In this document: piece by piece, positions 7,488 to 62,647 of the stretch | How positions within the stretch are numbered: the first letter of the stretch is position 1 | How the letters are laid out: every line of letters starts with the position of its first letter | Assembly: GCA_017522105.1 (NCBI GenBank) | Contig: JAFXAA010000030.1 | Coordinates: 2,176-66,175, forward strand | Direction: 5' to 3' | DNA length: 64,000 bases | Source of the DNA: Bacteroidales bacterium | GTDB lineage: Bacteria > Bacteroidota > Bacteroidia > Bacteroidales > P3 | Translations under genes and position numbers: made by a program | Notes under the pieces: model-generated | Told to the model about the DNA's origin: nothing | The model's database searches: none | Seen by the model: only the letters and a program-made list of their open reading frames with translations

Positions 7488-7604
7488 ATATTGTGCTTGT
7501 TTTTCTATCCTTACTCCGGTCGCGGACAGGCACTGGCAAAACACGGGCACCGCATGGTGTTGGGTCTGACAAGTGGCTTGTTGCGCGAAAGCGTTGTCTA
7601 CGGC

Positions 7605-7795
7605 CTATGGCAGGTCTCCTGGCTTGCCTCCGCACGCCGCGCCTTCTCGGGGGGCGATATCCCCAATGGCTTCTTGCGGTGGCTCACAATCAGTGCTTTA
7701 CATTAATTGCACTGCACTCGTTGAGGCTCACAGTTGCGCGTCAGTCCGTGATTTTCACACGGTTCCCTATTGTCCGCACCGGGCGGGCCATAGCC
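7605..7795 (-). promoter_or_regulatory. cobalamin (B12) riboswitch in the nrdD leader
   Basis: The minus strand reads AAUAGGGAACCGUGUGAAAAUCACGGACUGACGCGCAACUGUGAG ... GCCAUUGGGG...CCGAGAAGGC ... AAGCCAGGAGACCUGCC (B12 box). Confidence 0.85.
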
Positions 7796-7807
7796 TTTTC
7801 GACGCTG

Positions 7808-7920: not shown

Positions 7921-8050
7921 CTACGGACTTCCTACGGCTGTTCTACGGTTGTTTAACGGTTGTTCTACGGTTGTTCTACGGTTTAAACCGTTAAACAACC
8001 GTAGAACAACCGTTAAACAACCGTAGAACAGCCGTACAAACTCCGTTGCG
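7921..8050. repeat. family A palindromic element, copy 1 (11-nt CTACGGTTGTT-type units, centre GTTTAAAC)
   Basis: Arms of about 53 nt pair with a single 2-nt mismatch. The 103-bp core 7934-8036 is identical to 18421-18523. Confidence 0.95.
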
Positions 8051-9834: not shown

Positions 9835-9835
9835 T

Positions 9836-9942
9836 TGAAGAGTGAAGGGTGAAGGATGAAGAATTCTTTGCCCGGAATAAAAAGAAATTGGCTGGCGTAG
9901 TCGCAACGACCGCGTCAGCCAATTCTTCATTCTTCACTCTTC
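9836..9942. repeat. word-repeat hairpin (GAAGnnT units) with an inner GGCTGACGCG hairpin; probable bidirectional terminator
   Basis: GAAGAGTGAAGGGTGAAGGATGAAGAATT ... AATTCTTCATTCTTCACTCTTC. The inner stem is TTGGCTGGCG...CGCGTCAGCCAA. It sits between the convergent pruA and FKBP genes. Confidence 0.7.
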
Positions 9943-9955
9943 GTTCCTGTTTCTT

Positions 9956-10564
9956 TCAGAGCACCTTGATGAGCTCTACGGTGAAGATCAGGGCGGCGTA
10001 GGGCGGGATGTCGGCGCCGGCGCCGCGCTCGCCGTAGGCGAGGTTGTAGGGGATGTAGAACTTGTAGACGGCGCCTTCTTTCATGAGCTGCACGCCTTCC
10101 GTCCAGCCGCTGATGACCTGGCGCAGGCCGAACTCGGCGGGCTGGTTGCGGCGGTAGCTGGAGTCGAAGACTGTGCCGTCGATGAGCGTGCCCTCATAGT
10201 GGCAGCGCACTGTGTCGCTGGCTTTGGGCTGGCGGCCCGTGCCTTCCTTGACGACCTCGTACTGCAGGCCGCTGGCGGTGACGGTGACTCCGGCCTTGCC
10301 GGCGTTGGCCTTCAGGAAAGCCTCGCCGTCGGCCTTCGCCGTCTTGCCGCGCTCGGCGGCTTCGGCCTGCTGGCGCTCCTCCAGCTCGTTGAAGAAGTGC
10401 TCCAGCACCGCGTTGGCCTCGGTGTGGCTCATCTTGGGCTGCCGCCCTTCGAGGACGTCGCGTATGGCTTCGGCGTAATCGTCTATGTTCAGGCTCTTCT
10501 GGAGCCCCATTCCGATAAGTTGGTGGGCAATGTTGTGGCCCAATGCATAACTCAGTTTATCCAT
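9956..10564 (-). CDS. FKBP-type peptidyl-prolyl cis-trans isomerase
   Basis: FKBP C-terminal domain (VRCHYEGTLIDGTVFDSS...GWTEG...IPPYAALIFTVEL). The start overlaps the acyltransferase stop by 8 nt. Confidence 0.9.
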   Translation of the reverse strand: MDKLSYALGHNIAHQLIGMGLQKSLNIDDYAEAIRDVLEGRQPKMSHTEANAVLEHFFNELEERQQAEAAERGKTAKADGEAFLKANAGKAGVTVTASGLQYEVVKEGTGRQPKASDTVRCHYEGTLIDGTVFDSSYRRNQPAEFGLRQVISGWTEGVQLMKEGAVYKFYIPYNLAYGERGAGADIPPYAALIFTVELIKVL

Positions 10565-13880: not shown

Positions 13881-14035
13881 AGTATGATAAGTTTATTTTT
13901 TTTTCGCATCGTCGTAGTCGGCAATGCGAACAGTTATATAGTTGCAATAGGGTAGGGCGGGGTGGGCGACAGCCATATGTCGCAGCCTCCAACAAGTGCC
14001 TTATAGACGCGAAAGCATTGCCGAAAAAATCGTAC

Positions 14036-14195
14036 AGGGCAGGTCTCCTGGCTTATCCCTCAAGGCCGAAGTCTTCTCGGAGACGCTTGTCTCCAATGAC
14101 GTTTGTTTTTCTGCCCATCAGCGGTGAATTACAGTTGCGCGACAGCTCATGATTTGCACATGATTCCCTCTTGGCAGCCCCATTACAAGGCTGAC
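14036..14195 (-). promoter_or_regulatory. cobalamin (B12) riboswitch
   Basis: The minus strand reads AAGAGGGAAUCAUGUGCAAAUCAUGAGCUGUCGCGCAACUGUAAU ... GUCAUUGGAGAC...CCGAGAAGAC ... UAAGCCAGGAGACCUGCC. Confidence 0.85.
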
Positions 14196-14268
14196 TCGGT
14201 CGATGTTATTATTTCAAAGTGCTGAATAATTGCCGTCTTGCGAAAGACCGTCTCTCAAAATGGCGATG

Positions 14269-17436: not shown

Positions 17437-18341
17437 AACGCACGTGGATGCGCTACCGGCGCGACTACGAAGCCTACCTTAAGCTTGAGCGCGGCATGGC
17501 CGACAACAGCGTGAAAGCATACATGCAGGACTTTACCCACATGCAGCAGTTCATGTGCGAGCAAGGCATTGCGCCAGAGCAAGTAGCACATGCCGACCTA
17601 CAGTGTTTGTTGAAGCAGTTGTGCGACCTTGGCATTGCCCCGGCATCGCAACGTCGTATGATTGCCGGCTGGCGCATGTTCTTCCACATGCTCGTAGTGG
17701 AGGACGTGCTCAAGGACAGCCCCGCCGCCCTCCTCGACCTGCCCATCAAGCCCAAGCACCTGCCCGATGTGCTCACCGACGACGAGGTCACGGCCATACA
17801 GGATACCTTTGACCGCAGCATCCCCGAAGGCGAGCGCAACTACGTGATTGTGGAGGTGTTGTACGGTTGCGGCCTGCGTGTGTCCGAGCTCGTCAACCTC
17901 AAACTCTCCAACATATACGTCGAAGAGCAGTACCTGCAGGTGATAGGCAAAGGCGACAAGGAACGGTGGGTGCCGATCAACGAACACGCCCTCAGGCTCT
18001 TGCTTGACTACATACACCTTGTGCGCAGCCATCAGGAGCCAACGCCAGGCGAGGAGAAGATAGTCTTCCTCAACCGCCGCGGGCACCGCCTGACGCGCCA
18101 GATGGTGTTCATCATGCTGCGCGACGCCGTTGCCAAGGCTGGCATAAAGAAAAAGGTGAGCCCCCATTCGCTGCGCCACAGCTTCGCCACCGAACTTGTG
18201 GAGAACGGGGCCGACCTCCGCTCTGTGCAGGAGATGCTTGGCCATGAAAGCATCAGCACCACAGAGATTTACACCCACCTCACCCGCGACACCCTGCGCA
18301 ACACCATCGCCGCCTACCACCCCCATTACGCCAAGCATTGA
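17415..18341 (+). CDS. xerD: site-specific tyrosine recombinase XerD
   Basis: Core-binding N-terminus plus HSLRHSFATELVENGADLRSVQEMLGHESISTTEIYTH. It overlaps the mtgA end by 22 nt. Confidence 0.85.
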   Translation: MDETTEIERTWMRYRRDYEAYLKLERGMADNSVKAYMQDFTHMQQFMCEQGIAPEQVAHADLQCLLKQLCDLGIAPASQRRMIAGWRMFFHMLVVEDVLKDSPAALLDLPIKPKHLPDVLTDDEVTAIQDTFDRSIPEGERNYVIVEVLYGCGLRVSELVNLKLSNIYVEEQYLQVIGKGDKERWVPINEHALRLLLDYIHLVRSHQEPTPGEEKIVFLNRRGHRLTRQMVFIMLRDAVAKAGIKKKVSPHSLRHSFATELVENGADLRSVQEMLGHESISTTEIYTHLTRDTLRNTIAAYHPHYAKH

Positions 18342-18418
18342 CGCCTCCGCCACCCCGTCGGCATGACCTGCGGCATGCCCCTCCGCTCCCTTTTTTGTCC
18401 CCATCCTCACCGGCCCCG

Positions 18419-18536
18419 GTACGGCTGTTCTACGGTTGTTTAACGGTTGTTCTACGGTTGTTCTACGGTTTAAACCGTTAAACAACCGTAGAACAACCGT
18501 TAAACAACCGTAGAACAGCCGTAGGGACTCCGTAGA
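18419..18536. repeat. family A palindromic element, copy 2
   Basis: 18421-18523 is identical to 7934-8036. The right terminus GCCGTAGGGACTCCGTAG is complete and the left terminus is truncated. Confidence 0.95.
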
Positions 18537-18652
18537 GGGGCCGCGGGGGGCATGGAGGGTTGCCGGTGCGATGGAGTGTTGGTGGAGGTGTTGAATGTCA
18601 GATGATTGGTGCAAAATCGGCATTTTTTTACTGTAATATGGAAAAATAATTA

Positions 18653-18660
18653 TAATTTTG
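18653..18660 (+). promoter_or_regulatory. -7 box TAATTTTG (rex)
   Basis: Lies 27 nt before the ATG at 18687. Confidence 0.55.
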
Positions 18661-18686
18661 CACTCTGTAAAAACGGTGCACCGGAT

Positions 18687-19382
18687 ATGAAAGACAAGCA
18701 CAACTCACTGGTTATTTTGAAGTCCACGCTCAGCCGCCTGCCGTCCTACTATTGTTTTGTGGAGGAGCGCAAGGCCGCTGGCGAGGAGTATGTCTCGTCG
18801 GTTGCCATGGCAGAGAGCCTTGGCATCAATCCTGTACTTGTGCGCAAGGATTTGGCGAGCATCAGCAGGGAGCCCGGGCGTCCCAAGGTTGGATTCAGGG
18901 TGGAGACCCTGCTGGCTGACATGAAGAAGTACCTCGGCTACGACCACTATGACGAGGCGGTGCTTGTCGGGGTCGGTGCCCTGGGCCACGTGCTGCTGCA
19001 GTACGGCGGCTTTGCCAACTACGGCCTCGGCATTGTGGCGGGGTTCGACAAGGAGCCGTGTTCGGCCACGGTCGGCGGGCGCCCTGTGCTGCCGGTCGAG
19101 AAGCTGGTGTCGTTCCTTCGCCGCACACATATAGGTATAGGTATTATAGCCGTGCCTGCGCGCGAGGCGCAGAAGGTGGCGCAGATGTTGATTGACGGTG
19201 GCGTGCGTGCCATCTGGAATTTCGCACCGACGACCCTTGAGCTGCCGCGTGAGATACTGGTGAAGAACGAGAACCTGGCGGCGTCGCTCGCCGCTCTGAC
19301 CACCGAGCTGCGCCGCCGCATTGGCGGCGGCGGGGTGGATGAACCGCCCGCGGTGGATAAAAAAACGATAAAAAAGTATTGA
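18687..19382 (+). CDS. rex: redox-sensing transcriptional repressor Rex
   Basis: Winged-helix N-terminus (LSRLPSYYCFVEE...VSSVAMAESLGINPVLVRKDLA) and a Rossmann motif VGVGALGHVLL. Confidence 0.85.
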   Translation: MKDKHNSLVILKSTLSRLPSYYCFVEERKAAGEEYVSSVAMAESLGINPVLVRKDLASISREPGRPKVGFRVETLLADMKKYLGYDHYDEAVLVGVGALGHVLLQYGGFANYGLGIVAGFDKEPCSATVGGRPVLPVEKLVSFLRRTHIGIGIIAVPAREAQKVAQMLIDGGVRAIWNFAPTTLELPREILVKNENLAASLAALTTELRRRIGGGGVDEPPAVDKKTIKKY

Positions 19383-19399
19383 TTTTTGAAATAAAGTTG

Positions 19400-19407
19400 T
19401 ATATTTG
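19400..19407 (+). promoter_or_regulatory. -7 box TATATTTG (hydrogenase cluster)
   Basis: Followed by an ~85-nt leader before the ATG at 19496. Confidence 0.5.
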
Positions 19408-19495
19408 CATCGCAAAACAGGGAAGCGAGAATGGTGGAGGAGTCGGATTGACAGCCTGTTAGATGAAAATTGACAACAATAAAAATCAATAAAAA

Positions 19496-19795
19496 ATGAC
19501 GATAAAGGTTTGTGTCGGCAGTTCATGCCACCTGAAAGGATCATACGATGTGATTGAGGCCTTCACCGAGGTGCTCAAGAAATACGATGTTGAGGATGTA
19601 GTGGAGCTGCAGGCGAGCTTTTGCCTCGGCCACTGCGCCAAGGGTGTGAATGTGGCCTGCGAGGGCGTCGTTCCCGCCGCCCACGGTTCCCAGGTGGAGG
19701 AGACCCCCGAGGGATTCATACTGCACAACGTCAGCGCCGGCAATGTGGAAGAGTTGTTTGCCAGCGAGATATATCCCAAACTGAACCTGAATTAG
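19496..19795 (+). CDS. thioredoxin-like [2Fe-2S] ferredoxin domain protein
   Basis: Cys pattern CVGSSCHLKG ... CLGHCAKG, typical of NuoE/HymA-like 2Fe-2S modules. Confidence 0.7.
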   Translation: MTIKVCVGSSCHLKGSYDVIEAFTEVLKKYDVEDVVELQASFCLGHCAKGVNVACEGVVPAAHGSQVEETPEGFILHNVSAGNVEELFASEIYPKLNLN

Positions 19796-19884
19796 GACTA
19801 CATGCGGTCGTGTGTGTGTCCCGCGGCAAATGCCGCAGGGCGGGTTTGCGATTGCTCCACTATATAATATATTAAGGAAAAACC

Positions 19885-21639
19885 ATGTCAGAATATCTTG
19901 AATTCCGGACGGTGCAGTGCAAGGACTGCTACCGTTGCCTGCGCGAGTGTCCTGTGAAGGCAATAAACATCAAGGATCACCACGCTCAAATATTGGAAGA
20001 CCACTGCATACTGTGCGGCCATTGCACGAAGGTGTGCCCCCAGAAGGCCAAAATAGAGCACAGCGAGCTGCCCGTGGTGCGCGAGTTGCTGCGCAGCGGA
20101 GCCCGCGTGGCGGCCACGGTGGCGCCGTCGTTCATCAGCAGCCTCGGGCAGGAGGACTTTTCGGAGCTGCGCATAGCGCTGGCCAAGCTTGGCTTCGCCG
20201 TGGCCGAGGAGACTGCTGTGGGCGCGCAGGCTGTGGTGGAGGAATACAAACGGGTGCTAAAAACGGGAGAGATGAGGAACTTCATAACCTCTGCTTGTCC
20301 GGCGGCGTGCCGCCTTATCCAAATGTACTACCCCAAAGCTCTCCCGTACCTTGCCCCCGTTGACTCGCCCATGGTGGCGCACGCCAAGATGCTGCGCAAG
20401 GGCGATCCCGGACTGAAGGTGGTTTTCATCGGGCCCTGCATAGCCAAGAAGCGCGAGGCCGACGAGCATGGCATAGACGCCGTGCTCACTTTCGACGAGC
20501 TGCTGACCCTCTTCCGTGAGAGCGGCATCGACCTGGCGAACATCAACAAGCTGGCTGTGGGTTCCGACAACGGTTGCGCCAACCGTGCCAAGGCATTCCC
20601 TGCCACACAGGGCATCATCCGTTCGTTCGACGCGTTGCCCGAGGGCTACCGCTACCTTGCTGTGGACGGGGTGGACCGCCTGGCCGGGGTGCTGGAGAAC
20701 ATTGAGAGCCTGGACCATGTGTTCATTGAGATGAATGTGTGCCCCGGAGGCTGCATCAACGGCCCTTGTGCCATAGAGAACGAAGGGGGCTTGATGAAGG
20801 CCGAGGCCGACATCGACGCTTATGTGGAGCGCGAGATGGCCACGCGCAAGCACGCTCCCGCTCCCGACGCCGGGGTGTCGTTGGCCTATGCCTACCCGCG
20901 GCTGCGCGCCAAGAGCCGTCCGGCCACGGAGAAAGAGATAGAGGATGTGCTGCACCGCACCGGCAAGTTTTCGCCTGCCGACGAGTTGAACTGCGGTGCT
21001 TGCGGCTACAGCACGTGCCGCGAGAAGGCTTGGGCTGTGGTCAACGGCTATGCCGACATAGACATCTGCCTGCCATATATGCGCAAGCGAGCCGAGAGCC
21101 TTGCTGTGGACATAGTGCGCAACTCGCCCGAAGGCGTGGTGCTGGTGGACTCGGACATGAATATTGTGGACATCAACGCCTCGGCCATGAAGATGCTTGG
21201 CCTTGGCGGCACACCGGAGAGCGTGCAGGGGCACCCCATGGCGGAGAACTTCCAGCCAATAGATTTCTACAATGCCTACACGAAGAAATGCCGCACAGAG
21301 AACCCGTGCATCCACATCGCTGCCACCGACCGCTATGTGAGCCTCACGGTGAGCAACCTCAGCGAACAGAATCTGTTGTTTGGCCTTATGAAGGACATTT
21401 CGGAGCAGGTCAACTATGAGAAGAAGCTCGACAAGGTGAAGGCGGACACCATAGCCACCACCGACAACCTAATCATGAAGCAGATGCGTGTGGTGCAGGA
21501 GGTGGCGTCCCTTCTCGGCGAGACCACGGCGGAGACCAAGGTGGCCCTGATGAACCTGAAGAACATGCTTGCCGACGGCCATTCGGACCTGCGCTCCGAC
21601 GGGCGGCCAACAGATTGGAAGACAGCGAAAAAGGAGTGA
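19885..21639 (+). CDS. sensory [FeFe]-hydrogenase-like protein with C-terminal PAS domain (HydS-type, group C)
   Basis: Two 4Fe-4S motifs at the N-terminus. H-cluster motifs are TSACP (Ala in place of the proton-relay Cys), GPCIAKKRE and MNVCPGGCINGP. There is an extra 4-Cys motif, CGACGYSTC...C, then a PAS-like segment. Confidence 0.85.
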   Translation: MSEYLEFRTVQCKDCYRCLRECPVKAINIKDHHAQILEDHCILCGHCTKVCPQKAKIEHSELPVVRELLRSGARVAATVAPSFISSLGQEDFSELRIALAKLGFAVAEETAVGAQAVVEEYKRVLKTGEMRNFITSACPAACRLIQMYYPKALPYLAPVDSPMVAHAKMLRKGDPGLKVVFIGPCIAKKREADEHGIDAVLTFDELLTLFRESGIDLANINKLAVGSDNGCANRAKAFPATQGIIRSFDALPEGYRYLAVDGVDRLAGVLENIESLDHVFIEMNVCPGGCINGPCAIENEGGLMKAEADIDAYVEREMATRKHAPAPDAGVSLAYAYPRLRAKSRPATEKEIEDVLHRTGKFSPADELNCGACGYSTCREKAWAVVNGYADIDICLPYMRKRAESLAVDIVRNSPEGVVLVDSDMNIVDINASAMKMLGLGGTPESVQGHPMAENFQPIDFYNAYTKKCRTENPCIHIAATDRYVSLTVSNLSEQNLLFGLMKDISEQVNYEKKLDKVKADTIATTDNLIMKQMRVVQEVASLLGETTAETKVALMNLKNMLADGHSDLRSDGRPTDWKTAKKE

Positions 21640-22830
21640 ATGCATAATCGGGAGAATGAAAGAGCTATGAAGGAATTGTGTATTGAATACGGCTTCACGT
21701 CGCTGAACCACTATGGCGAGGAGTTGTGCGGCGACAATGTGGAGATGTGTGTCAACGGCGAGTGGACCACGCTGGTGCTCGCCGACGGACTGGGCAGCGG
21801 AGTGAAAGCCAATATCCTCTCCACGCTCACCAGCAAGATACTGTGCACCATGGTGGCCGCAGGGGCCGACATCGAGGAGTGCGTGGAGACGGTCATACAG
21901 ACCCTGCCGGTGTGCAAAGAGCGCCAGGTGGCGTACAGCACCTTCTCTGTCATCCATGTGGACAACCACGGCAAGGGGCATCTCTTTGAGTTTGACAACC
22001 CCGAGGCTATCTGGTACCACGCCGGTCACACGCAGAACTTTCCGCGCATGGAGAAAGAGATATGCGGCAAGAAGGTGTACATCACCGAGCTTGAGCTTGA
22101 GGCCGGCGACATGGTCTTTGTCATGAGCGACGGCACCATACACGCAGGCATAGGCCAGATACTGAATTTCGGCTGGCAGCGCAAAGAAATCATGCAGCAT
22201 CTCGACGCCAACATAGACCCCCACATGTCGGCCCGTGCCGCCGCCTGCCTGCTGGCATCGGCCTGCAACGACCTGTACCTCGACCGTCCCGGCGACGACA
22301 CCACGGTGGCTGCTGTGCGCATACGACCGCGCACCGAGGTGCACATCATGGTGGGTCCGCCGGTTGACAAGGAGCGCGACGCCGAATATGTGGCGAAATT
22401 CATGGAAGGGGCTGACAAGCGCATAGTCTGCGGCGGCACCACGTCGCAGGTGGTGGCACGCTGCATCGGGCAGAAGTTGAAGACATCGTTTGACTTTCCC
22501 GACCGCGAGGTGCCGCCCATAGGCTTCATTGACGGCATCGACCTTACCACCGAGGGGGTCATTACCCTGCGCCGTCTGCTGGCGCTGTCGGAGAGGTATG
22601 TGTCGGTGAAAGACCTGACGCCCAAGACGTACAGCAAGAAGGACGGTGGGTCGCTGCTGGCCAACATTATCTTCGAGGAGAGCACGCATGTGGTGTTCTT
22701 TGTGGGTCAAAATGTCAACGCAGCCCATCAGGGGCTTGACATAGACATCACCATGAAGCTCAAACTTGTGGAGCGCCTGGCAGAGAACCTGCGCCGCATG
22801 GGTAAACAAGTAACTGTCAACTACGACTAA
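21640..22830 (+). CDS. SpoIIE/PP2C-family serine phosphatase
   Basis: GEELCGDNV...LADGLGSGVKANILS...VMSDGTIHAG. The start abuts the upstream stop (TGAATG). Confidence 0.8.
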   Translation: MHNRENERAMKELCIEYGFTSLNHYGEELCGDNVEMCVNGEWTTLVLADGLGSGVKANILSTLTSKILCTMVAAGADIEECVETVIQTLPVCKERQVAYSTFSVIHVDNHGKGHLFEFDNPEAIWYHAGHTQNFPRMEKEICGKKVYITELELEAGDMVFVMSDGTIHAGIGQILNFGWQRKEIMQHLDANIDPHMSARAAACLLASACNDLYLDRPGDDTTVAAVRIRPRTEVHIMVGPPVDKERDAEYVAKFMEGADKRIVCGGTTSQVVARCIGQKLKTSFDFPDREVPPIGFIDGIDLTTEGVITLRRLLALSERYVSVKDLTPKTYSKKDGGSLLANIIFEESTHVVFFVGQNVNAAHQGLDIDITMKLKLVERLAENLRRMGKQVTVNYD

Positions 22831-22838
22831 AGTGATAT

Positions 22839-24302
22839 ATGGAACAGAAATTATTTGACACCAACGTACAGTGGATTAAATACAAAGTGCTCAAGGAGGT
22901 CATTCGCCGGGCCTATGAAGGCGGGCTGGACGAAGCATATCTTGAAATACCCAAAATAATCAGCCCGGGGCCGAAATCGGAGCTCAACTGCTGCATATAC
23001 AAGGAGAGGGCCATTGTGCAAGAGCGCATACACATGGCCATGGGCGGTGACAAGGATAACCCGAATCCTGTGCAGGTCATGGAGATAGCATGTGACGAGT
23101 GCCCCGCAGCAGGCATGCTTGTGACCGAGGCATGCCGCGGGTGCATGATGCATGCCTGCAAGGATGTGTGTCCGCGCGATGCCATCACTATCGTCAACCA
23201 TCGCTGCACAATAGACAAGAGTAAATGCATAGAGTGCGGACGCTGCTCGCAGGCATGTCCATACAGCGCCATCATTGCCCAGCACCGCCCATGCATGAAG
23301 AGTTGCAAGGTGAAGGCCATATCCATCAACAGTGACGACAAAGCCGTCATAGACAACACGAAGTGCATATCGTGTGGAGCCTGCGTGGTCAGTTGTCCTT
23401 TCGGCGCCATCACCGACAGGTCGCATGTGCTGGACATTATAGACATTCTCAAGGGCTCGGATGGCAACAGCAGATACCGTGTGTATGCAGTCATTGCGCC
23501 GGCCATCGTAAGCCAGTGCCGTTTCGGACGCATAGGACAAGTGGTTACAGCCATTAAGCAGCTTGGGTTCCACCAGGTTGTAGAGGCAGCCCTCGGTGCC
23601 GACATCACCCTGTACAATGAGGCACGGGAGTTCAAGGAGAAGGCTGAGCACATGGCGGAGCCTGTAATGACTACGTCGTGCTGTCCGGCGTTTGTGTCCT
23701 TTGTTGAAAAGAACTTCCCGGAATATCGCGATGCCATCTCGACCTCGGTGTCACCCATGGTGATGGCAGCAAGGCTCATAAAACGCTCCGACCCGACGGC
23801 GAAGGTGGTGTTTATAGGCCCTTGCGCGGCCAAAAAGTCGGAGTATACGCTGCCGAAGACAGGCGGGATGATTGACAGCGTGATGTCGTTTGAGGAGCTG
23901 CAGGCTTTCGTTGATGCCAGGGGTATAGACACCACAAAATGCGAGGACACCAACCTTGACAATGCATCCTATTATGGCAGGATTTTCGCCAAGAGCGGAG
24001 GTTTGTCGCAAGGGGTGGCTTATGTGGCGTCGCAACTGGGCATAGACGGGGTGAAACCGCTTGCCATGAACGGCATAGACCAGTGCAGGCAGCACCTTTC
24101 GCTGCTCCGTGCGCACAAGGCCACGGCAAATTTCTTCGAGGGTATGGCCTGCGATGGTGGCTGCATAGGCGGACCGCTGAGCATCACGCGGTCGCCGCGC
24201 AATGTTGTCGATGTGGACCAGTATGGCAATTCGGCCAAGGAGAAAAACATCGACGGGTCGGTGCGCCTGTATCAGATGACGTTCCCGGAAACACAAGAAT
24301 AA
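22839..24302 (+). CDS. catalytic [FeFe]-hydrogenase with multiple N-terminal FeS clusters
   Basis: Canonical H-cluster motifs TSCCPAF, GPCAAKKSE and EGMACDGGCIGGP, plus several CxxCxxCxxxCP ferredoxin motifs. Confidence 0.9.
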   Translation: MEQKLFDTNVQWIKYKVLKEVIRRAYEGGLDEAYLEIPKIISPGPKSELNCCIYKERAIVQERIHMAMGGDKDNPNPVQVMEIACDECPAAGMLVTEACRGCMMHACKDVCPRDAITIVNHRCTIDKSKCIECGRCSQACPYSAIIAQHRPCMKSCKVKAISINSDDKAVIDNTKCISCGACVVSCPFGAITDRSHVLDIIDILKGSDGNSRYRVYAVIAPAIVSQCRFGRIGQVVTAIKQLGFHQVVEAALGADITLYNEAREFKEKAEHMAEPVMTTSCCPAFVSFVEKNFPEYRDAISTSVSPMVMAARLIKRSDPTAKVVFIGPCAAKKSEYTLPKTGGMIDSVMSFEELQAFVDARGIDTTKCEDTNLDNASYYGRIFAKSGGLSQGVAYVASQLGIDGVKPLAMNGIDQCRQHLSLLRAHKATANFFEGMACDGGCIGGPLSITRSPRNVVDVDQYGNSAKEKNIDGSVRLYQMTFPETQE

Positions 24303-24322
24303 TAGCTTTTTAGGATATACTG

Positions 24323-24357
24323 AAAAACGGTCAACAATAGCTGTTGACCGTTTTTTT
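24323..24357 (+). terminator. rho-independent terminator
   Basis: CGGTCAACA-atagc-TGTTGACCG followed by T7. Confidence 0.85.
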
Positions 24358-24390
24358 GTATTTTTTGCCGTATGAATGAAATAATTTTCG

Positions 24391-36058: not shown

Positions 36059-36066
36059 CAAAAGTA
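36059..36066 (-). promoter_or_regulatory. -7 box TACTTTTG (clpC)
   Basis: The plus strand reads CAAAAGTA, 23 nt upstream of the clpC ATG. Confidence 0.55.
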
Positions 36067-36186
36067 CATCTTTCCTACCATCTGCAACTTCCATGCCAAA
36101 AGTTGTTATCAACATCCCCGTGTCAATACCACCGTCCGCCGTTGTACGCGGCTCCACTTTCTCCTGCCTCCCCATGCATCCTCACC

Positions 36187-36311
36187 GGAGTCCCTACGGC
36201 ATTTCTTCAGTAGTTCTTCAGTAGTTCTTCAGTAGTATTTCAGTGTTTGACTGAAGAACTACTGAAGAACTACTGAAGAACTACTGAAGAAATGCCGTAC
36301 CGGCTCCGTAC
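36187..36311. repeat. family B palindromic element, copy 1 (11-nt TTCTTCAGTAG units)
   Basis: GGAGTCCCTACGGCATT-(TCTTCAGTAGT)x3...loop TTTCAGTGTTTGAC...(CTACTGAAGAA)x3-ATGCCGTACCGGCTCCGTAC. Confidence 0.95.
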
Positions 36312-36410
36312 TGCTGCCGTCGCAGTTTGCGACACTTCTGTTTGTCAGTGCGTTGTCTCGGTGTTCATAAATAGTGCGCTTTTTGCTGCCGAAGTTTGCA
36401 AAATATTTCG

Positions 36411-36418
36411 TATCTTTG
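36411..36418 (+). promoter_or_regulatory. -7 box TATCTTTG (argS)
   Basis: Lies 29 nt before the ATG at 36448. Confidence 0.6.
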
Positions 36419-42075: not shown

Positions 42076-42185
42076 CTACGGAGTCCCTACGGCCGTTCTT
42101 CAGTAGTTCTTCAGTAGTTCTTCAGTCAAACACTGAAGAACTACTGAAGAACTACTGAAGAACGGCCGTAGGGGCTCCGTACCGG
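42076..42185. repeat. family B palindromic element, copy 2 (inverted loop orientation)
   Basis: CTACGGAGTCCCTACGGCCG-(TTCTTCAGTAG)x2-TTCTTCAGT-caaac-ACTGAAGAA-(CTACTGAAGAA)x2-CGGCCGTAGGGGCTCCGTACCGG. Confidence 0.95.
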
Positions 42186-44912: not shown

Positions 44913-44961
44913 CAAGCGGAAAGAGAGACAAGGATTGCAGGCTGAAGCCTGTGTATCATAC

Positions 44962-45067
44962 GGTTGGGCAAGTCTTATACGACCAGCTCCCATTGAATCC
45001 CCCAGGGTAGGAATACAGCAAGGGTGTTTGGTTGTAGCGGTGCGATATAAACAGCTTGCCCTTTTTT
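44962..45067 (+). ncRNA. ffs: signal recognition particle RNA (small bacterial SRP / 4.5S type)
   Basis: Helix-8 signature at 45004-45020: AGG-GUA-GGAA-UAC-AGCA, i.e. a GGAA tetraloop flanked by the symmetric-loop AGG/AGCA. The closing helix is GGGCAAG (44966-72) / CTTGCCC (45055-61), followed by T6. A promoter lies upstream. The 5' boundary is uncertain. Confidence 0.65.
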
Positions 45068-51225: not shown

Positions 51226-51257
51226 ATATTTTTGACATTCCTTCCCTGCGTATCCCC

Positions 51258-51388
51258 CACGGAGCCCCTACGGCATTTCTTCAGTAGTTCTTCAGTAGTT
51301 CTTCAGTAGTATTTCGGTGTTTGACTGAAGAACTACTGAAGAACTACTGAAGAACTACTGAAGAAATGCCGTAGGGGCTCCGTAGGGG
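51258..51388. repeat. family B palindromic element, copy 3
   Basis: The core differs from copy 1 by one substitution (TTTCGGTG vs TTTCAGTG). The 17-nt termini ACGGAGCCCCTACGGCA / TGCCGTAGGGGCTCCGT are perfectly complementary. Confidence 0.95.
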
Positions 51389-51479
51389 ATTGGGGGCAGA
51401 ACTGTGGAATGTAGGCGGTGTCGAAATGTTAAATTTTAGGAAAATTCACCGTCGGGCTTGTCGTGTTGGGGAAATTTCG

Positions 51480-54065: not shown

Positions 54066-57000
54066 ATGAACAGATATAGGACAAGAATGAGAGGTGGCGT
54101 GACGCTTCGACTGGCAGCGTGCCTGCTGGCGGTTGTGTGTTGCCTCCTTTCGGCCACGGCGCAGAACACTACCCACGGCTACCTGCGCTTCGACCTGCCC
54201 ACCGACGTGTGTGCGGGCACCACGCAGACCTTCCGCTTCGGCTACAACGCGCAATTCAACGTGGTGTTCGACCTGCCGCAGGCGTCGCAGAGCCATGCCG
54301 AGCGGGCCTTCCTACCCGACGGCGTGTCATGTTCGCCCTACGGCTGCTCCTACCGTTCCAACGTCACATTCAGCAGCTTCGCCCCCGGTGCGACGCTGAC
54401 TTCAGTGCAGGACATCAAGTATGTGCGTGTTAACATGGAACACAGCTGGATAGGCGACTTGTACATCGGTATCGTCTGCCCTAACGGGCAGCGCGCGAGC
54501 CTGATGAACTGGAGCGGCGACGGCAGCAGCAGCTGCGACGACGAGGTGCCTGCGGGTCACCGCACCTGGGTGTCGGGCAGCAATGTGAGCAACGGAACAT
54601 ACCTCGGCAACCCTTATGATTACTCAAACTCTTTATACCCCTGCGATTCAACAAACAGTAACAACCAGCCAGGCTCTGGCTGGAACTACTGCTGGAGCAA
54701 CAACACCACGAGCGGCTATCAGTATGCCAGCGGCGACGGGCGCATCTACCGTTTGGCCAACCGTACGGGAAGCAGCATCGACAGCAGCAATGTGGCGCTG
54801 GGACGCAAGTTCTACCATCCTGACCAGAACTTCAGCAGCCTCACAGGGTGCCCGCTGAATGGCAACTGGTATATTGAAGTTATCGACGCTTGGAGCGGCG
54901 ACAACGGCTGGATATTCGACTGGGAGCTGGCGCTCAACCCCAACCTGCTGCCCACGGACTGCGCCCTGCTGAAGCGCGAGGTGATAGGGGCGCGTGTGAC
55001 AAGGCAGAACGACTCGACCTACCGGTTCTCGGCTCCGTCGGTGACACACGATTCCGTGTTCCCCGTGACGTTCAGGATAGTGAGCACCTGTGGCGACACC
55101 ATTGACAGCACGGCCTACATCACCGTGCACCCGAAATACAACATCACCGAATACGACACGGCGTGCGACAGCTACACCCTTTTCGAGCAGACCTACACGC
55201 ACGACATCATGGTGGTCAAGCACTTCACTTCGGTGGGCAACTGCGACAGCACCATGCGCTACCGCCTGCACATACTGCATTCCGACCAGACAGAAGTGCA
55301 CGACACTGTGCTGCAGAACCAGCTGCCCTACGTGGTGGACGGCGAGACCCTGGTGCCGGCGCTCCCGCCACTGCCACCCTACCCCTCCGGCGGAGCCACG
55401 CTGCTCGACACCACGCTGCTGAGGACCAACCGCACGGGGTGCGACAGTACGGTGAGCATGACGCTTTTCGTGTGGTACAACATAGCCGACACGGTGGACA
55501 GCACCGTATGCCGACACCAGCTGCCGCTGACGTGGAACGGCGTGGAGTTCGTCGACGCAGGCCAACAGACCGTCACGCTGACGGGCAGCCACGGAGTGGA
55601 CAGCCTGCTGACGATGCGGGTGGCCGTGATAGAGGACACTCGGCTTGACGTGCACGACACCGTGGTGGAAAACCAGCTGCCATGGGGCCTCGACGGACAC
55701 GAAACCTTTGCCGGCGACACCGCCGTTGAATACATGACTGTCAATGCGGGAGGCTGCGACAGCCTGATAACATACAGCCTGCATGTGTGGCGCAACAGCC
55801 TCGACTCCATAGACAGCACCGTATGCCGACACCAGCTGCCGATAGAGTGGAACGGACTGACGTTTGCCGACGCCGGGGTGCAGACGCTGATGCTGGCCGA
55901 CGTGCACGGCGCCGACAGCGTGACGGTGATGACCCTCGCCGTGAACGAAGACAACCTGGGAGAATGGAGCGACACGGTGGTGGAGAACAACCTGCCGTGG
56001 CCGGGAGTGGAAGGCTTCGAACCGCTGACAGGCACCACAGACACGCTGTACCTGCTGCAGAACGCCGCAGGATGCGACAGCCTGCTGCACTACTCGCTGC
56101 ACGTGTGGTGGAACCGCAGGACGGAGATAGACAGCTCGGTGTGCCGTCACGAGCTGCCGGTGGTATGGAACGGAGAGACTTTCGGCGACAGCGGCACCAA
56201 GACAGTGACACTGGCGGAAAGCCACGGTGCGGACAGTCTCGTGGTGATGACGCTGAGTGTGAGGGAAGATACCTACAATGATATAAAAGACACTGTGGTG
56301 GAGAACAACCTGCCGTGGATGCGTTCAGGCATCGGTACCTTCGACACCATAGCCGACACGGCTATTATGCTGGCCAACGCCCAAGGATGCGACAGCATCG
56401 TGAGCTTCAGCCTGCACGTGTGGTACAATGTGGAAGAAAGCTTCGACACTGTGGTGTGCGACAACGTGTGGCCGCTGGTGTGGCGTGGTGCGCGCTTCAA
56501 TGGCGGCAGCACCGTACAGCGCACACTCTACAACGCCCATGGAGCCGACAGCACCGTGCACCTGACGGTGACGGCCATGCCGGTGTACGACAGCACCATA
56601 GAAGCCGAGACCTGCGACAACACAGGATACGTGCACGACGGACAGACCCTGCGGAGGAATGGCGTCTTCCGCTTCATGTACACCACGGCGGCGGGTTGCG
56701 ACAGCCTCGTCCGCATCAGTCTTAGGGTATGGCCGACAGCGTCGGAGAAGGACTATGACACAGTGTGCCTCTCGGAACTGCCCTACTCATGGGAAGGACA
56801 ATCTCTGTTCTATGGCGGCAAGTCGGACATAACATCCACCGTCATGATGGCCACCGTGCACGGATGCGACAGCGTGAGGAGCCTCAGCCTCGCCGTAAAG
56901 GGCATATACCTCATGGCCCGGCCGCACATAACACCCACCGTGGTGACCCTCGAAGACCCGAAGATTGTATTCAACGACAACAGTCGCGACGCCACCAGCC

Positions 57001-57428
57001 GACTGTGGATTGTGGACGACTACCAGACTGACAGGCAGAGCTTCAGCTACACCTATACCTCGGAGGTTGACTCGCTGCCCGTTACCCTCATCGCCTACAA
57101 CACCGAGAGCTGTACCGATACGGCCAGGACGCTGATACTGCTCGACCGCTCGGCACTCATTGCGCCCAACGTCTTCACCCCCGACCAGGAAATCAACAAC
57201 CACTGGTTCGTTGCCACCACCGACATTACGGAAATACACGTCTGGATATACAACCGCCACGGCAACCTTGTGGGCGAATATACCGACATAGACGGCTATT
57301 GGGACGGACACACCCTCGACGGCCATCCCTGCCCACAAGGGGCATACGTGTACAAAGTGCAATACCGCACCAAAGTGCATCCAGACCGCCTTCAAGACAA
57401 GACCGGGACGCTGCTCCTGCTCAAATAA
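54066..57428 (+). CDS. T9SS type-B cargo protein, tandem paralog of the upstream gene, with an expanded repeat region
   Basis: The N-terminal ~300 aa are collinear with the upstream protein (AERAFLPDGVSC, GDLYIGIVCPNGQRASLMNWSG, GYQYASGDGRIYR). More than 10 C/GCDS-type repeats are present. C-terminus PNVFTPDQEINNHWFV...GAYVYKV. Confidence 0.85.
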   Translation: MNRYRTRMRGGVTLRLAACLLAVVCCLLSATAQNTTHGYLRFDLPTDVCAGTTQTFRFGYNAQFNVVFDLPQASQSHAERAFLPDGVSCSPYGCSYRSNVTFSSFAPGATLTSVQDIKYVRVNMEHSWIGDLYIGIVCPNGQRASLMNWSGDGSSSCDDEVPAGHRTWVSGSNVSNGTYLGNPYDYSNSLYPCDSTNSNNQPGSGWNYCWSNNTTSGYQYASGDGRIYRLANRTGSSIDSSNVALGRKFYHPDQNFSSLTGCPLNGNWYIEVIDAWSGDNGWIFDWELALNPNLLPTDCALLKREVIGARVTRQNDSTYRFSAPSVTHDSVFPVTFRIVSTCGDTIDSTAYITVHPKYNITEYDTACDSYTLFEQTYTHDIMVVKHFTSVGNCDSTMRYRLHILHSDQTEVHDTVLQNQLPYVVDGETLVPALPPLPPYPSGGATLLDTTLLRTNRTGCDSTVSMTLFVWYNIADTVDSTVCRHQLPLTWNGVEFVDAGQQTVTLTGSHGVDSLLTMRVAVIEDTRLDVHDTVVENQLPWGLDGHETFAGDTAVEYMTVNAGGCDSLITYSLHVWRNSLDSIDSTVCRHQLPIEWNGLTFADAGVQTLMLADVHGADSVTVMTLAVNEDNLGEWSDTVVENNLPWPGVEGFEPLTGTTDTLYLLQNAAGCDSLLHYSLHVWWNRRTEIDSSVCRHELPVVWNGETFGDSGTKTVTLAESHGADSLVVMTLSVREDTYNDIKDTVVENNLPWMRSGIGTFDTIADTAIMLANAQGCDSIVSFSLHVWYNVEESFDTVVCDNVWPLVWRGARFNGGSTVQRTLYNAHGADSTVHLTVTAMPVYDSTIEAETCDNTGYVHDGQTLRRNGVFRFMYTTAAGCDSLVRISLRVWPTASEKDYDTVCLSELPYSWEGQSLFYGGKSDITSTVMMATVHGCDSVRSLSLAVKGIYLMARPHITPTVVTLEDPKIVFNDNSRDATSRLWIVDDYQTDRQSFSYTYTSEVDSLPVTLIAYNTESCTDTARTLILLDRSALIAPNVFTPDQEINNHWFVATTDITEIHVWIYNRHGNLVGEYTDIDGYWDGHTLDGHPCPQGAYVYKVQYRTKVHPDRLQDKTGTLLLLK
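55497..56445 (+). repeat. three tandem ~315-nt (105-aa) coding super-repeats
   Basis: GACAGCACCGTATGCCGACACCAGCTGCCG recurs at 55497 and 55812, and a diverged copy is at 56130. Each unit comprises a 'DSxVCRHxLPxxWNG' module and a 'DTVVENxLPW...GCDS' module. Confidence 0.85.
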
Positions 57429-60947: not shown

Positions 60948-61754
60948 ATGGAATGGTTTGAAGCTCTTATCCTTGGCATCATCCAAGGCCTAACAGAATA
61001 CCTGCCGGTCAGCTCCAGCGGTCATCTGGCCATAGGCGCCAACCTCTTCGGCCTCAGCGGAGAAGAGAACCTCACCTTCACCGTTGCCGTCCATGTGGCC
61101 ACCGTGCTCAGCACCATCGTCATCCTTTGGCGTGAGATAGTGTGGCTTATCACTGACCTGTTCAAGTTCCGCTGGAACGAAGGCACCAAGTACATCGTCA
61201 ACATTATCATCTCCATGATACCTGTTGGCATCGTCGGTCTCTTCTTTAAGGACAAGGTGGAAGCTATTTTCGGCAGCGGACTCCTCGTGGTGGGCATCTG
61301 CCTGCTGGTCACTGCCACGCTGCTGGCCTTTAGCTACTGGGCCAAACCGCGCCAGCGTGAGACTATCTCGCCCCTGCACGCCTTCATCATCGGCCTTGCA
61401 CAGGCCCTCGCCGTGCTCCCCGGCCTCTCGCGCTCCGGCAGCACCATAGCCACTGGGCTTCTGCTGGGCAACAAGAAAGAGCGTCTCGCGCAGTTTTCAT
61501 TCCTCATGGTCATCCCCCCGATCCTCGGCGAAGCGCTGCTCGACGTCAAGGACATAGCCGAGATGGGCGTCAGCCAGGCAATGGCCGGCCTGCCGCCACT
61601 CTCACTCCTCGTGGGCTTCCTCGCCGCCTTCGTCTGCGGATGCATAGCATGCAAGTGGATGATCAACATCGTCAAGCGCGGCAAACTCATCTGGTTCGCT
61701 CTCTACTGCGCCATCGTCGGCACACTGACCATCGTCCTCCCCTACGTCCTCTGA
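60948..61754 (+). CDS. uppP: undecaprenyl-diphosphate phosphatase
   Basis: BacA motif [14 protein letters not shown] and [10 protein letters not shown]. Confidence 0.9.
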
Positions 61755-62647
61755 TGGTAACTGTAGAGCAGCTGCAGGCAGGCATCGTCCTCCCCATCGA
61801 CAAACCGCGGCAGTGGACCTCCTTCCAAGCCGTCAACAAGATAAAGGCCGTGGTGCGCAACACCTACGGCCAACGCGACGCAAGCGGCGCGAAGGCCGGC
61901 CCCAATGGCGGCCTTAAGAAATTCAAGATAGGCCATGCCGGCACCCTCGACCCCTTGGCTACAGGCCTCCTCCTCGTATGCCTCGGCAAGGCCACCAAGA
62001 CCATCCCAACCCTGCAGGACGGCGACAAGGTGTACACCGGCACCATGGTGCTTGGCGCCACAACGCCATGCTACGACCTTGAGCGCCCCATAGACCGCTA
62101 CTACCCCTACGAGCACATCACTCCCGAGCTCCTGCAGCAGACGCTGCCGCAGTTCACAGGCACCATCATGCAGGTGCCGCCAATGTTCAGCGCCGTGAAA
62201 ATCAGCGGCCAGAGGGCTTACGAGTATGCACGCCTCGACGACCCCACAGTCACCATCCAACCCAAGCCCGTCAACATCTACAGCTTCGAGATTACGGACT
62301 TCCGCCCGGGGAATGAAGAATCTGAATGTGTTAATGCGTCAATGCGTGAATGCGTTAGTACTGACGCGTCAGCCACTAACGCATTAACACATTCACACAA
62401 TAACACATTAAAAAAAGCCCACCATCTCTACGACAACCCGCTCGGCACCGTCCCCGCACACCTTCCGCAGGCCGACTTCCGCATCCATTGCGGCAAGGGC
62501 ACCTACATCCGCTCCCTCGCCCGCGACCTCGGTCTCGCCCTCGGCAGCGGCGCCTTCCTCTCGGCCCTCCGCCGCGAGCAGATAGGCTCCTACAACGTCG
62601 CCGACGCCCTCCGCCTCGACGAGGTGGAAGCCTACCTCACCAAATAA
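61754..62647 (+). CDS. truB: tRNA pseudouridine(55) synthase, carrying an in-frame palindromic insertion
   Basis: Catalytic motif GHAGTLDPLATG and the CGKGTYIRSLARDLG segment. The start is placed at MVTVEQL, overlapping the uppP stop (TGATG). Confidence 0.9.
   Translation: MVTVEQLQAGIVLPIDKPRQWTSFQAVNKIKAVVRNTYGQRDASGAKAGPNGGLKKFKIGHAGTLDPLATGLLLVCLGKATKTIPTLQDGDKVYTGTMVLGATTPCYDLERPIDRYYPYEHITPELLQQTLPQFTGTIMQVPPMFSAVKISGQRAYEYARLDDPTVTIQPKPVNIYSFEITDFRPGNEESECVNASMRECVSTDASATNALTHSHNNTLKKAHHLYDNPLGTVPAHLPQADFRIHCGKGTYIRSLARDLGLALGSGAFLSALRREQIGSYNVADALRLDEVEAYLTK
62311..62417. repeat. word-repeat palindromic element inside the truB coding sequence
   Basis: GAATGTGTTAATGCGT(CAATGCGTGAATGCGT)TAGTA-CTGACGCGTCAG-CCACTAACGCATTAACACATTC. 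It is locally AT-rich and has no stop codon in the truB frame. Confidence 0.8.

Follow-up and report, generated by a model that had tools for sequence, protein, structure and literature searches.

A palindrome of tandem 11-nucleotide units between a clpC-like gene and argS, and its relation to interspersed repeats of ruminant-gut Bacteroidales

Does a long palindrome lying between two divergent promoters serve the genes on either side of it, or is it there as one member of a wider family? The question is raised by B1, a palindrome of tandem 11-nucleotide (nt) units between a clpC-like gene and argS, in a 64,000-nt stretch of DNA from a Bacteroidales bacterium (hereafter the window; coordinates are window positions throughout). 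A preliminary description of the locus had assigned the palindrome to a repeat family and had implied a specific link to clpC and argS. A dedicated operator role at either gene is unsupported by our analysis: near-identical cores lie between unrelated gene pairs. Since the same kind of element is widespread in divergent spacers and its cores are interchangeable at orthologous sites, any promoter effect would be generic to the family. In our estimation the chances are evenly balanced that B1 is one copy of a clade-restricted, non-autonomous, self-renewing interspersed non-coding DNA palindrome, of the kind represented by repetitive extragenic palindromes (REPs), their hairpin-forming doublets (REPINs) and MITEs, the miniature transposable elements with inverted repeats. 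It would act, if at all, at the DNA level.

What is B1 made of? An inverted-repeat search returned two arms of 59 nt (36186-36244 and 36250-36308), 92% complementary and 5 nt apart. Tandem Repeats Finder (TRF) reported a period of 11 in both (36203-36244, 3.8 copies, 93% matches; 36250-36291, 3.8 copies, 100%), giving about four 11-nt units per arm, and confirmed a palindrome of 11-nt units where it had first been placed. In the predicted single-stranded DNA (ssDNA) fold, 42 nt pair perfectly (at least 36 had been claimed), followed by a 2-nt mismatch and 6 further pairs, and the folding energy is -58.7 kcal/mol against -13.2 +/- 2.5 for shuffled sequences (z = -18.1). The 14-nt loop of the preliminary description had to be corrected: it had taken in a fourth, slightly mismatched unit, and the actual loop, GTTTG, has 5 nt. 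Because this loop is not self-complementary, it sets the orientation of the element. Read from the centre, the arms run TTCAGT, three TTCAGTAGTTC units, the junction TACGGCATTTC and GC-rich TACGG-like units, with the variant TTCAGTAGTAT as the innermost full unit of the left arm. The unit TCTTCAGTAGT, allowing at most one mismatch, occurs 16 times in the window, where 0.37 occurrences are expected and no more than 2 were seen in any of 100 shuffles. The parts of B1 and the two promoter boxes outside it are as follows.

36173-36194, no strand: left scaffold, degenerate outer 11-nt units CATGCATCCTC and ACCGGAGTCCC (read from sequence)
36195-36299, no strand: core, a discrete palindromic unit TACGG...CCGTA (junction, inner units, loop, inner units, junction), equal to 51269-51373 at 104 of 105 nt
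36195-36205: left junction unit TACGGCATTTC (read from sequence)
36206-36244, + strand: left inner array, TTCAGTAGTTC twice (36206-36227), variant TTCAGTAGTAT (36228-36238) and half unit TTCAGT (36239-36244) (TRF period 11)
36245-36249, + strand: loop GTTTG (inverted-repeat search, fold)
36250-36288, + strand: right inner array, ACTGAA and then GAACTACTGAA three times (36256-36288) (TRF 3.8 copies, 100% matches)
36289-36299: right junction unit GAAATGCCGTA (read from sequence)
36300-36310, no strand: right scaffold unit CCGGCTCCGTA, a CCGG variant of the outer unit (read from sequence)
36059-36066, - strand: -7 box TACTTTTG of the clpC-like gene, outside B1 (read from sequence)
36411-36418, + strand: -7 box TATCTTTG of argS, outside B1 (read from sequence)

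The -7 boxes were read by eye against the Bacteroidota consensus, TAnnTTTG. B1 thus lies between two divergent promoters, about 100 nt from the argS box and about 120 nt from that of the clpC-like gene, as had been reported. ArgS was identified by a Pfam match; the product of the clpC-like gene is a class-I Clp/Hsp100 ATPase, for which the ClpB and ClpA subfamily models both score under cut-off. Just right of B1 and upstream of the argS promoter, the + strand carries a small terminator-like hairpin, GTCGCAGTTTGCGAC, with a T-rich tail (36319-36333).

B1 does belong to a repeat family. The window holds three B copies and two copies of a second family, A; besides B1 these are:

42077-42181 (as annotated, to 42192), no strand: B2, arms of 50 nt, 98% complementary; core 42088-42170 (83 bp), junction type CCG, loop CAAAC
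51252-51390, no strand: B3, arms of 67 nt, 94% complementary; core 51269-51373
7923-8046, no strand: A1, units GTTCTACGGTT and GTTTAACGGTT; core 7933-8036, equal to the A2 core at 104 of 104 nt
18405-18538, no strand: A2, core 18420-18523, equal to the A1 core at 104 of 104 nt

Their neighbours differ from site to site. B2 lies between a gene for a 324-residue hypothetical protein (-) and priA (+), B3 between the FTCD gene (-) and the gene of a protein sorted by the type IX secretion system (+), and A1 between a riboswitch-controlled nrdD (-) and an aldehyde dehydrogenase gene (+), while A2 is found 3' of a xerD-like gene (+) and 5' of rex (+). The loop GTTTG is common to B1 and B3, and that of B2 is its reverse complement, so copies exist in both orientations. 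When A and B are aligned, they have in common the 11-nt register, a T-W-C-R-G core, the junction unit (TACGGCTGTTC, TACGGCCGTTC or TACGGCATTTC) and the outer units; they form one superfamily, in keeping with the related design first noted for them.

Across 35 non-redundant B copies, on which the following statistics rest, the anatomy has two layers. The inner one is a discrete TACGG...CCGTA core of 83-105 bp that is identical or near-identical among the loci of one genome. Its ends are sharp: the A1 and A2 cores match at every position from TACGG to CCGTA and part at the first base beyond either end, and the identity between the B1 and B3 cores ends within 3 nt on the left and immediately on the right. 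Around the core lies the outer layer, a scaffold specific to each locus, whose GC-rich TACGG-type 11-bp units degenerate with distance from the centre, and the element as a whole, scaffold included, fades gradually into the flank, unlike the core. From the centre outwards a B copy consists of the half unit TTCAGT, 2-5 inner TTCAGTAGTTC units, a junction (TACGGCCGTTC or TACGGCATTTC), outer units that are mainly TACGGAGTCCC or TACGGACCCGG, and a C-rich terminal unit, xxCGCATCCCC or CACCCCTCCCC. Family A has inner units of the GTTCTACGGTT type in place of TTCAGTAGTTC, and loops measure 0-5 nt. In type, the left-scaffold units of B1 match those that other copies have as terminal (xxCGCATCCCC) and outer (TACGGAGTCCC) units, and the CCGG/TACGGACCCGG-type unit is among the two commonest outer units of the family. 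The TAT variant of the inner unit, often confined to one arm, is seen again at other loci and in other species, and some arms carry the unit AACGATACTTC.

The TWCGG core of the units is retained in 78%, 52%, 10% and 0% of arms at successive outer positions, a gradient in which decay grows towards the outside. Outer units of opposite arms are often non-complementary (CCC versus CGG before TACGG), and the arms have unequal unit numbers in 11 of 29 copies. What is conserved is therefore a pair of inverted 11-bp-periodic arrays and not a perfect hairpin. Neither the cores nor the whole elements are surrounded by direct repeats that would mark a target-site duplication; their flanks are inverted units. 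Recognition sequences of restriction enzymes occur in the units: the B unit contains CTGAAG, the junction contains CGGCCG, and rumen-type copies have GCNGC at their centre. This may be coincidence.

How stable is the element at orthologous sites? We compared the window with stretches of genome and metagenome contigs, labelled as L-numbered loci (L003, L005, L084-L203, L204 etc.). The clpC-argS synteny is kept in sister species whose ArgS is 88-91% identical, and the spacer holds an element of the same superfamily in all three of those in which it is intact. The conservation at orthologous loci that the preliminary description had named as a test thus stands as far as the occupation of the spacer is concerned, but not for the B array itself: two of the species have almost none of it, and in the third a different type of unit has taken its place. 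In L204 and L205, four outer units per arm stand at the same place and the inner array has almost gone, its residue being a single ACTGAAGAAATGCC beside the junction type of the window; the clpC-like gene, argS and the promoter boxes are conserved despite this loss. L206 has a different variant of the element in the clpC-argS spacer, and an A-type palindrome at the site orthologous to B2. In a fourth sister species (L210-L212), a three-gene cassette splits the spacer and partial arrays are left. The L210 cassette (6200-6520, 9200-10010) carries genes for a 100-residue protein, a DUF2779 protein and a HAD protein, and its borders show three copies of TAGGAGCCGTC (11 nt) and an inverted pair of threefold GTAGGACA (8 nt) around an AT-rich spacer of 125 nt.

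Two further loci are orthologous to parts of the window at about 90% identity (blastn), L130 to 11.7-19.2 kb and L125 to 49.4-60 kb. The core at the A2 site is of type A in the window and of type B in L130 and L124, next to 25 nt of right scaffold that are identical. The element of L125 at the B3 site also has a B core and bears the TAT variant on the arm that bears it in the window, whereas the loop (GCTGC), the unit numbers and the scaffolds all differ. Loops follow the genome: the three B loci of the window species all have GTTTG, and the four sampled loci of the sister contig Ga0310695_10000024, the B3 ortholog included, have GCNGC. Junction type or loop may differ even between strains with 96-98% identical flanks, as the junction type does between L129 and L171; that pair had been considered as a rearrangement at the element, which we rejected because blastn shows both flanks to be collinear. 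At none of four compared sites did we see a presence/absence polymorphism: all are occupied in the relatives, and the content alone differs. As the same core change cannot arise independently at several loci, cores must have passed from one locus to another once the species had separated.

The elements are frequent end points of rearrangements and indels, as seen in a 6-kb indel in L124, in the L210 cassette and in the changed neighbours of argS and of the gene for the 324-residue protein in L204, L205 and L005. The 6-kb indel (rex to 24302) distinguishes L124 (380-900) from the window (18329-24379) and L130, and one of its ends is at the outer edge of an element. This link is only suggestive, since operon boundaries tolerate rearrangements anyway. 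L124 also has three 12-nt C-rich repeats, CACTCCCCTCTC, outside the scaffold. A single B1-B2 inversion was tried as the cause of the gene order in L005, from the nearest species in GTDB, and dropped, because the two orders cannot be related by one inversion.

Where do the copies lie with respect to genes? Gene context was taken from a simple codon-usage gene caller, which reproduced the database gene calls for the window, and the protein region 54066-57428 was annotated by Pfam. Divergent spacers contain 15 of 20 classifiable non-redundant B copies and co-directional spacers the other 5, with none between convergent genes; divergent spacers make up 31% of the free intergenic DNA in the same loci (P = 8e-5 for the excess of B copies). 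In the window itself, elements occupy 4 of the 6 divergent spacers, 1 of the 33 co-directional ones and none of the 7 convergent ones, and the two unoccupied divergent spacers are 132 and 148 nt long. The -7 boxes of the neighbouring genes are all outside the element, so the elements sit in untranscribed DNA directly upstream of promoters. Distances from element centre to box range from 92 to 582 nt across the family, and no fixed phasing between the two was found. The neighbours are housekeeping genes, and no candidate gene for a DNA-binding protein adjoins the elements.

How far does the family extend? Metagenome contigs in ENA with identical ArgS genes carry the same element. The nearest species representative in GTDB is the metagenome-assembled genome (MAG) of an uncultured Bacteroidales from roe-deer rumen, with an ArgS 86% identical. 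Neither A/B units nor comparable long hairpins were found in 1.4 Mb around argS from 80 other Bacteroidota species, and arrays with a lag of 11 number five in the 64-kb window against one low-complexity match in those 1.4 Mb. A degenerate two-unit pattern matched more than 120 stretches in JGI metagenomes. Many of these are complete B-type palindromes in ruminant-gut contigs of 50-63% G+C; the remainder belong to different unit families or, in high-GC soil and marine contigs, are arrays that look unrelated. No family member was found in IMG/VR, among the PLSDB plasmids or in GenBank phages, and no Rfam 15 family matched at its gathering threshold, the only hits being sub-threshold generic microRNA-precursor hairpins. 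The whole-element pattern ACGGAGYCCCTACGGC-N65-95-GCCGTAGGGRCTCCGT had no match in 185,579 species genomes, where the species is either absent or represented by a MAG broken at the repeats. Full-text literature searches returned no description of such elements in Bacteroidales, a weak negative given an incomplete collection. The family is restricted to a small clade of uncultured ruminant-gut Bacteroidales.

Other rumen contigs (L121, L152 2836-2893, L160, L187) have direct, single-arm arrays of GTTCTTCGGTT or GTTCTTCGTCT, and arrays of nearly the same 11-mer occur in high-GC soil contigs and in Ga0115005 marine contigs (L084-L203). The high-GC soil contigs were considered as carriers of family members for having the same 11-mer; their neighbouring genes (DUF1028, a WYL regulator, DUF4112) gave no lead, and no link to the family was made.

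To which known class does such an element belong? Like REPs and REPINs, it is high-copy, extragenic, palindromic and hairpin-forming and lacks target-site duplications; it is clade-specific, has species-specific sequence types and persists vertically for long; and a REP-flanked Y1 transposase is present in contigs of sister species. REPs are 20-40 nt long, have a 5-13-bp stem and a tag that reads GTAG or CGTC, and lie mostly downstream of genes (PMC3733652, a survey that found GTAG-type REPs in other phyla only, not in Bacteroidetes). Here, in contrast, the arms are 50-67 nt of tandem 11-nt units, well outside the REP size, and the layering of scaffold and core has no REP counterpart. The elements lie upstream of promoters, mostly in divergent spacers, and the repeats around the Y1 transposase gene are another sequence, whereas a REP-associated tyrosine transposase (RAYT) would be flanked by the same repeat. 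GTAG occurs inside many units (CCGTAGGG, TTCAGTAGTT), but not as a single terminal tag.

The nearest described element in Bacteroidales is BrickBuilt, a MITE of Porphyromonas gingivalis, which is likewise species-restricted, always intergenic and made of short tandem units without spacers in variable number (PMC4596501). It differs in that its 23-nt units form a direct array, which has leader and tail subunits, small inverted ends and promoter activity (PMC4596501), and the two inverted arrays of 11-nt units described here, forming a near-perfect palindrome with a 0-5-nt loop, are set apart from it by that description. No likeness in sequence was seen between the two, though no search aimed at it was made. 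Several defining features of a MITE were not found in our family: a target-site duplication, a parent autonomous element (in the window, the loci read, or the viral, plasmid and phage collections) and a presence/absence polymorphism. ERIC, Correia/NEMIS, RUP and BOX are small non-autonomous interspersed inverted repeats able to affect neighbouring genes; they have defined terminal inverted repeats and usually target duplications, and are often co-transcribed. Our elements resemble them in being small, non-autonomous, interspersed and inverted, but arms of tandem units are found only here.

Arrays bound by proteins offer another comparison. ParR sites on parC of plasmid R1, the pho boxes of PhoB/OmpR-type regulators and SARP sites have a period of one helical turn and tandem units with a conserved 5-7-bp core, and stand upstream of promoters. 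Our arrays share the one-turn period, the short core within tandem units and the position, but those serve one locus or a regulon, fall short of 100% identity from one locus to the next and form no long palindrome, unlike the identical long palindromes here. An intrinsic terminator would not be followed by G-rich units instead of T, nor stand upstream of both genes as B1 does, and a CRISPR array would have spacers, whereas these units run head to tail. Rickettsia palindromic elements occur inside genes. The window has a counterpart in a palindrome of 8-nt units (AATGCGTC-like) at 62325-62411, in frame in truB (61754-62647) between the TruB_N and TruB_C_2 matches and translated as ECVNASMRECVSTDASATNALTHSHNNTL; it resembles the Rickettsia elements in lying within a gene and differs in unit structure, and the B1 family was seen between genes only. 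All together, the element is classed with the bacterial interspersed palindromic repeats, yet it departs from the defining features of REP, MITE and BrickBuilt alike.

How could such copies be kept alike? In the reading that we prefer, arrays would gain and lose units through slippage, while the core would be overwritten again and again from other copies in the same genome and the older outer units would decay. Overwriting of this sort would leave the copies of a genome looking alike as the units outside the core degenerate. The sequence patterns lead us to infer ongoing copying between loci, renewal from the centre outwards and breakage at the centre. A long palindrome may extrude or fold and break at its centre; repair from an ectopic copy would then let conversion proceed from the centre outwards. 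We propose this route tentatively, as one that falls somewhat short of an even chance, and chose it because it is the most economical way to both the decay gradient and the homogeneity. The main alternative for the copying step is re-insertion of the core by a trans-acting enzyme, for which the Y1 (RAYT-like) transposase of sister-species contigs is the only candidate seen.

Several points weigh against this account. No enzyme and no break has been observed, the copying mechanism being deduced from patterns in the DNA, and the sharp, identical core ends are at least as easily explained by a discrete element having been inserted as by gene conversion. Orthology between elements was judged by position and a few details (the A2 scaffold, the B3 variant arm, the B1 junction type). 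Each lineage may conceivably have colonised the same spacers independently and repeatedly, which would equally need ongoing copying. The context counts depend on a home-made gene caller and on loci picked for carrying the repeat. Moreover, the occupation of divergent spacers, the 11-bp period in several unit families and the identity of B units despite about 10% divergence of the flanks could reflect selection for protein binding or DNA architecture.

Two alternatives survive best, each of them unlikely in our judgement. According to the first, the core is mobilised as an ssDNA hairpin by a RAYT-type Y1 (HUH) transposase, domesticated and present in a single copy, as has been proposed for REP/REPIN sequences. 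Between trmD and clpP, a conserved location, B-bearing contigs of sister species encode a 153-residue Y1 transposase (PF01797); 3-5 tandem REPs (CGACCCCGTAGGGGTCG...) flank it 5' and inverted REPs 3', which is the layout of a REPtron. One data source names its homologs 'REP element-mobilizing transposase RayT', and the core of these REPs, CCGTAGGGGTC, resembles the scaffold units CCGTAGGGGGTCCGTAGGG. The missing target-site duplications, the discrete core ends and the strong hairpin would all suit such a system, and REPINs are known to persist vertically for long (bioRxiv 10.1101/2021.07.10.451892). However, what flanks the Y1 genes (L109, L215, L217, L152) is a different, short REP and no A/B array, and this REP type is absent from the window and from about 120 kb of its closest relatives. 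The gene itself is known here from sister-species contigs alone, not from the window species, and its homologs extend far beyond the arrays, to Flavobacterium, Chitinophagales and Elusimicrobia. NCBIfam places the protein in IS200/IS605 TnpA, with the REP_Tyr_transpos model under cut-off. The unequal or non-complementary arms of many copies speak against this alternative, and so does the usual downstream position of REPs (PMC3733652) against arrays that lie upstream of promoters. The REP form around the Y1 gene is ACCCCGTAGGGGT (CGACCCCGTAGGGGTCGCATAxCAATAG, period 53-59), at L109 9500-9969, L217 1-1041, L215 5860-6580 and L092 10680-10870, and free-standing REP clusters are also present in contigs of sister species.

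The second alternative, which we rate just as low, is a functional DNA module: a binding platform for some protein that contacts the same side of the helix at 11-bp intervals, or a device of cruciform or curved DNA by which divergent promoters are insulated from mutual supercoiling. The elements start just beyond the promoters, and the divergent spacers of the window that they leave empty are both short. The 11-bp period recurs in several unrelated unit families (GTTCTACGGTT, TTCAGTAGTTC, AACGATACTTC, TAGGAGCCGTC), the arrays need not be complementary and would be better suited to duplex DNA than to a hairpin, and B units are identical between species whose flanks differ by about 10%. OmpR/PhoB-type winged-helix proteins bind to direct repeats of 11 bp, as does ParR on parC. 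Yet no candidate protein was found, and 100-bp identity between loci requires copying, beyond selection on binding sites. No given core is required at a locus, since A and B cores swap at one site and the core is nearly lost at clpC-argS in two species; the spacing to the -7 boxes varies, and related palindromes of 8-nt units exist, one of them within truB. A generic role alongside the preferred reading is possible, as a spacer of whole helical turns, a curved segment, a cruciform sink for the negative supercoils of divergent transcription, or an 11-bp-phase protein platform; it is favoured by the high occupation of divergent spacers and the 11-bp period recurring in several unit families. That the arrays are an architectural part of promoter regions, a renewable 11-bp stack, protein-bound or cruciform, that buffers divergent promoters and is homogenised by a dedicated copying system, has in our view a low probability.

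A classical cut-and-paste MITE, in other words an insertion sequence reduced by deletion, with several transposase-binding repeats at its ends and moved in trans by that transposase, is improbable. The small, non-coding, interspersed inverted-repeat build, the discrete core ends and the two orientations would agree with it. No target-site duplication is visible, however, the compared sites show no presence/absence polymorphism, and the outer ends are graded instead of sharp. No insertion sequence with matching ends was found in the window or the loci read, where the Y1 genes are the only transposases detected, and the element is absent from the plasmid, phage and viral collections.

Could the palindrome act as RNA, being transcribed into a hairpin that works as terminator, stabiliser or small-RNA precursor? 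The hairpin is very stable and a period of 11 nt is the helical repeat of A-form RNA, but the element lies upstream of each of the two promoters beside it, convergent spacers contain no copy, the stem lacks a following T-run, a terminator scan makes no call on B1, the arms are often unequal or mismatched, and Rfam offers only sub-threshold generic microRNA hairpins; such a role is very unlikely. Least probable of all is a locus-specific operator or regulator of the clpC-like and argS promoters, which would explain why B1 stands between both and why the spacer is occupied in sister species, but neither the near-identical cores between unrelated gene pairs nor a B array nearly gone (L204, L205) or replaced (L206) where genes and promoter boxes are conserved.

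Other features of the window are of separate interest. Two cobalamin riboswitches lie on the - strand (7592-7807 and 14021-14214), the first of them preceding nrdD, the gene of an anaerobic ribonucleotide reductase. A Bacteroidales small signal recognition particle RNA (44959-45065, + strand) stands between priA and a release-factor gene. Tandem repeats of 60 nt (about 4 copies) and 78 nt (about 2.4 copies) at 63221-63603 are coding and belong to a predicted surface protein gene (62803-63903, - strand; Flg_new_2, DUF6383).

What would the family mean for the genomes that carry it? Short-read contigs end within the palindromes (L003, L208, L209 and many of L084-L203), and contigs of the window species begin 167-224 nt upstream of argS. 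The elements break up short-read assemblies; they will fragment MAGs at operon boundaries and may hide rearrangements. For annotation, they should not be taken as locus-specific operators. If our description holds, the family represents a new design of interspersed repeat, with arms of tandem 11-bp units and an exchangeable core in a decaying scaffold, confined to DNA upstream of promoters. It would offer a natural case of concerted evolution, in which dispersed non-coding copies are kept alike within each genome, and would let the tolerance of palindromes, their breakage and their repair be studied in an anaerobe. Should the architectural reading be true instead, these arrays would be a chromosome-wide class of self-homogenising cis-elements, not junk.

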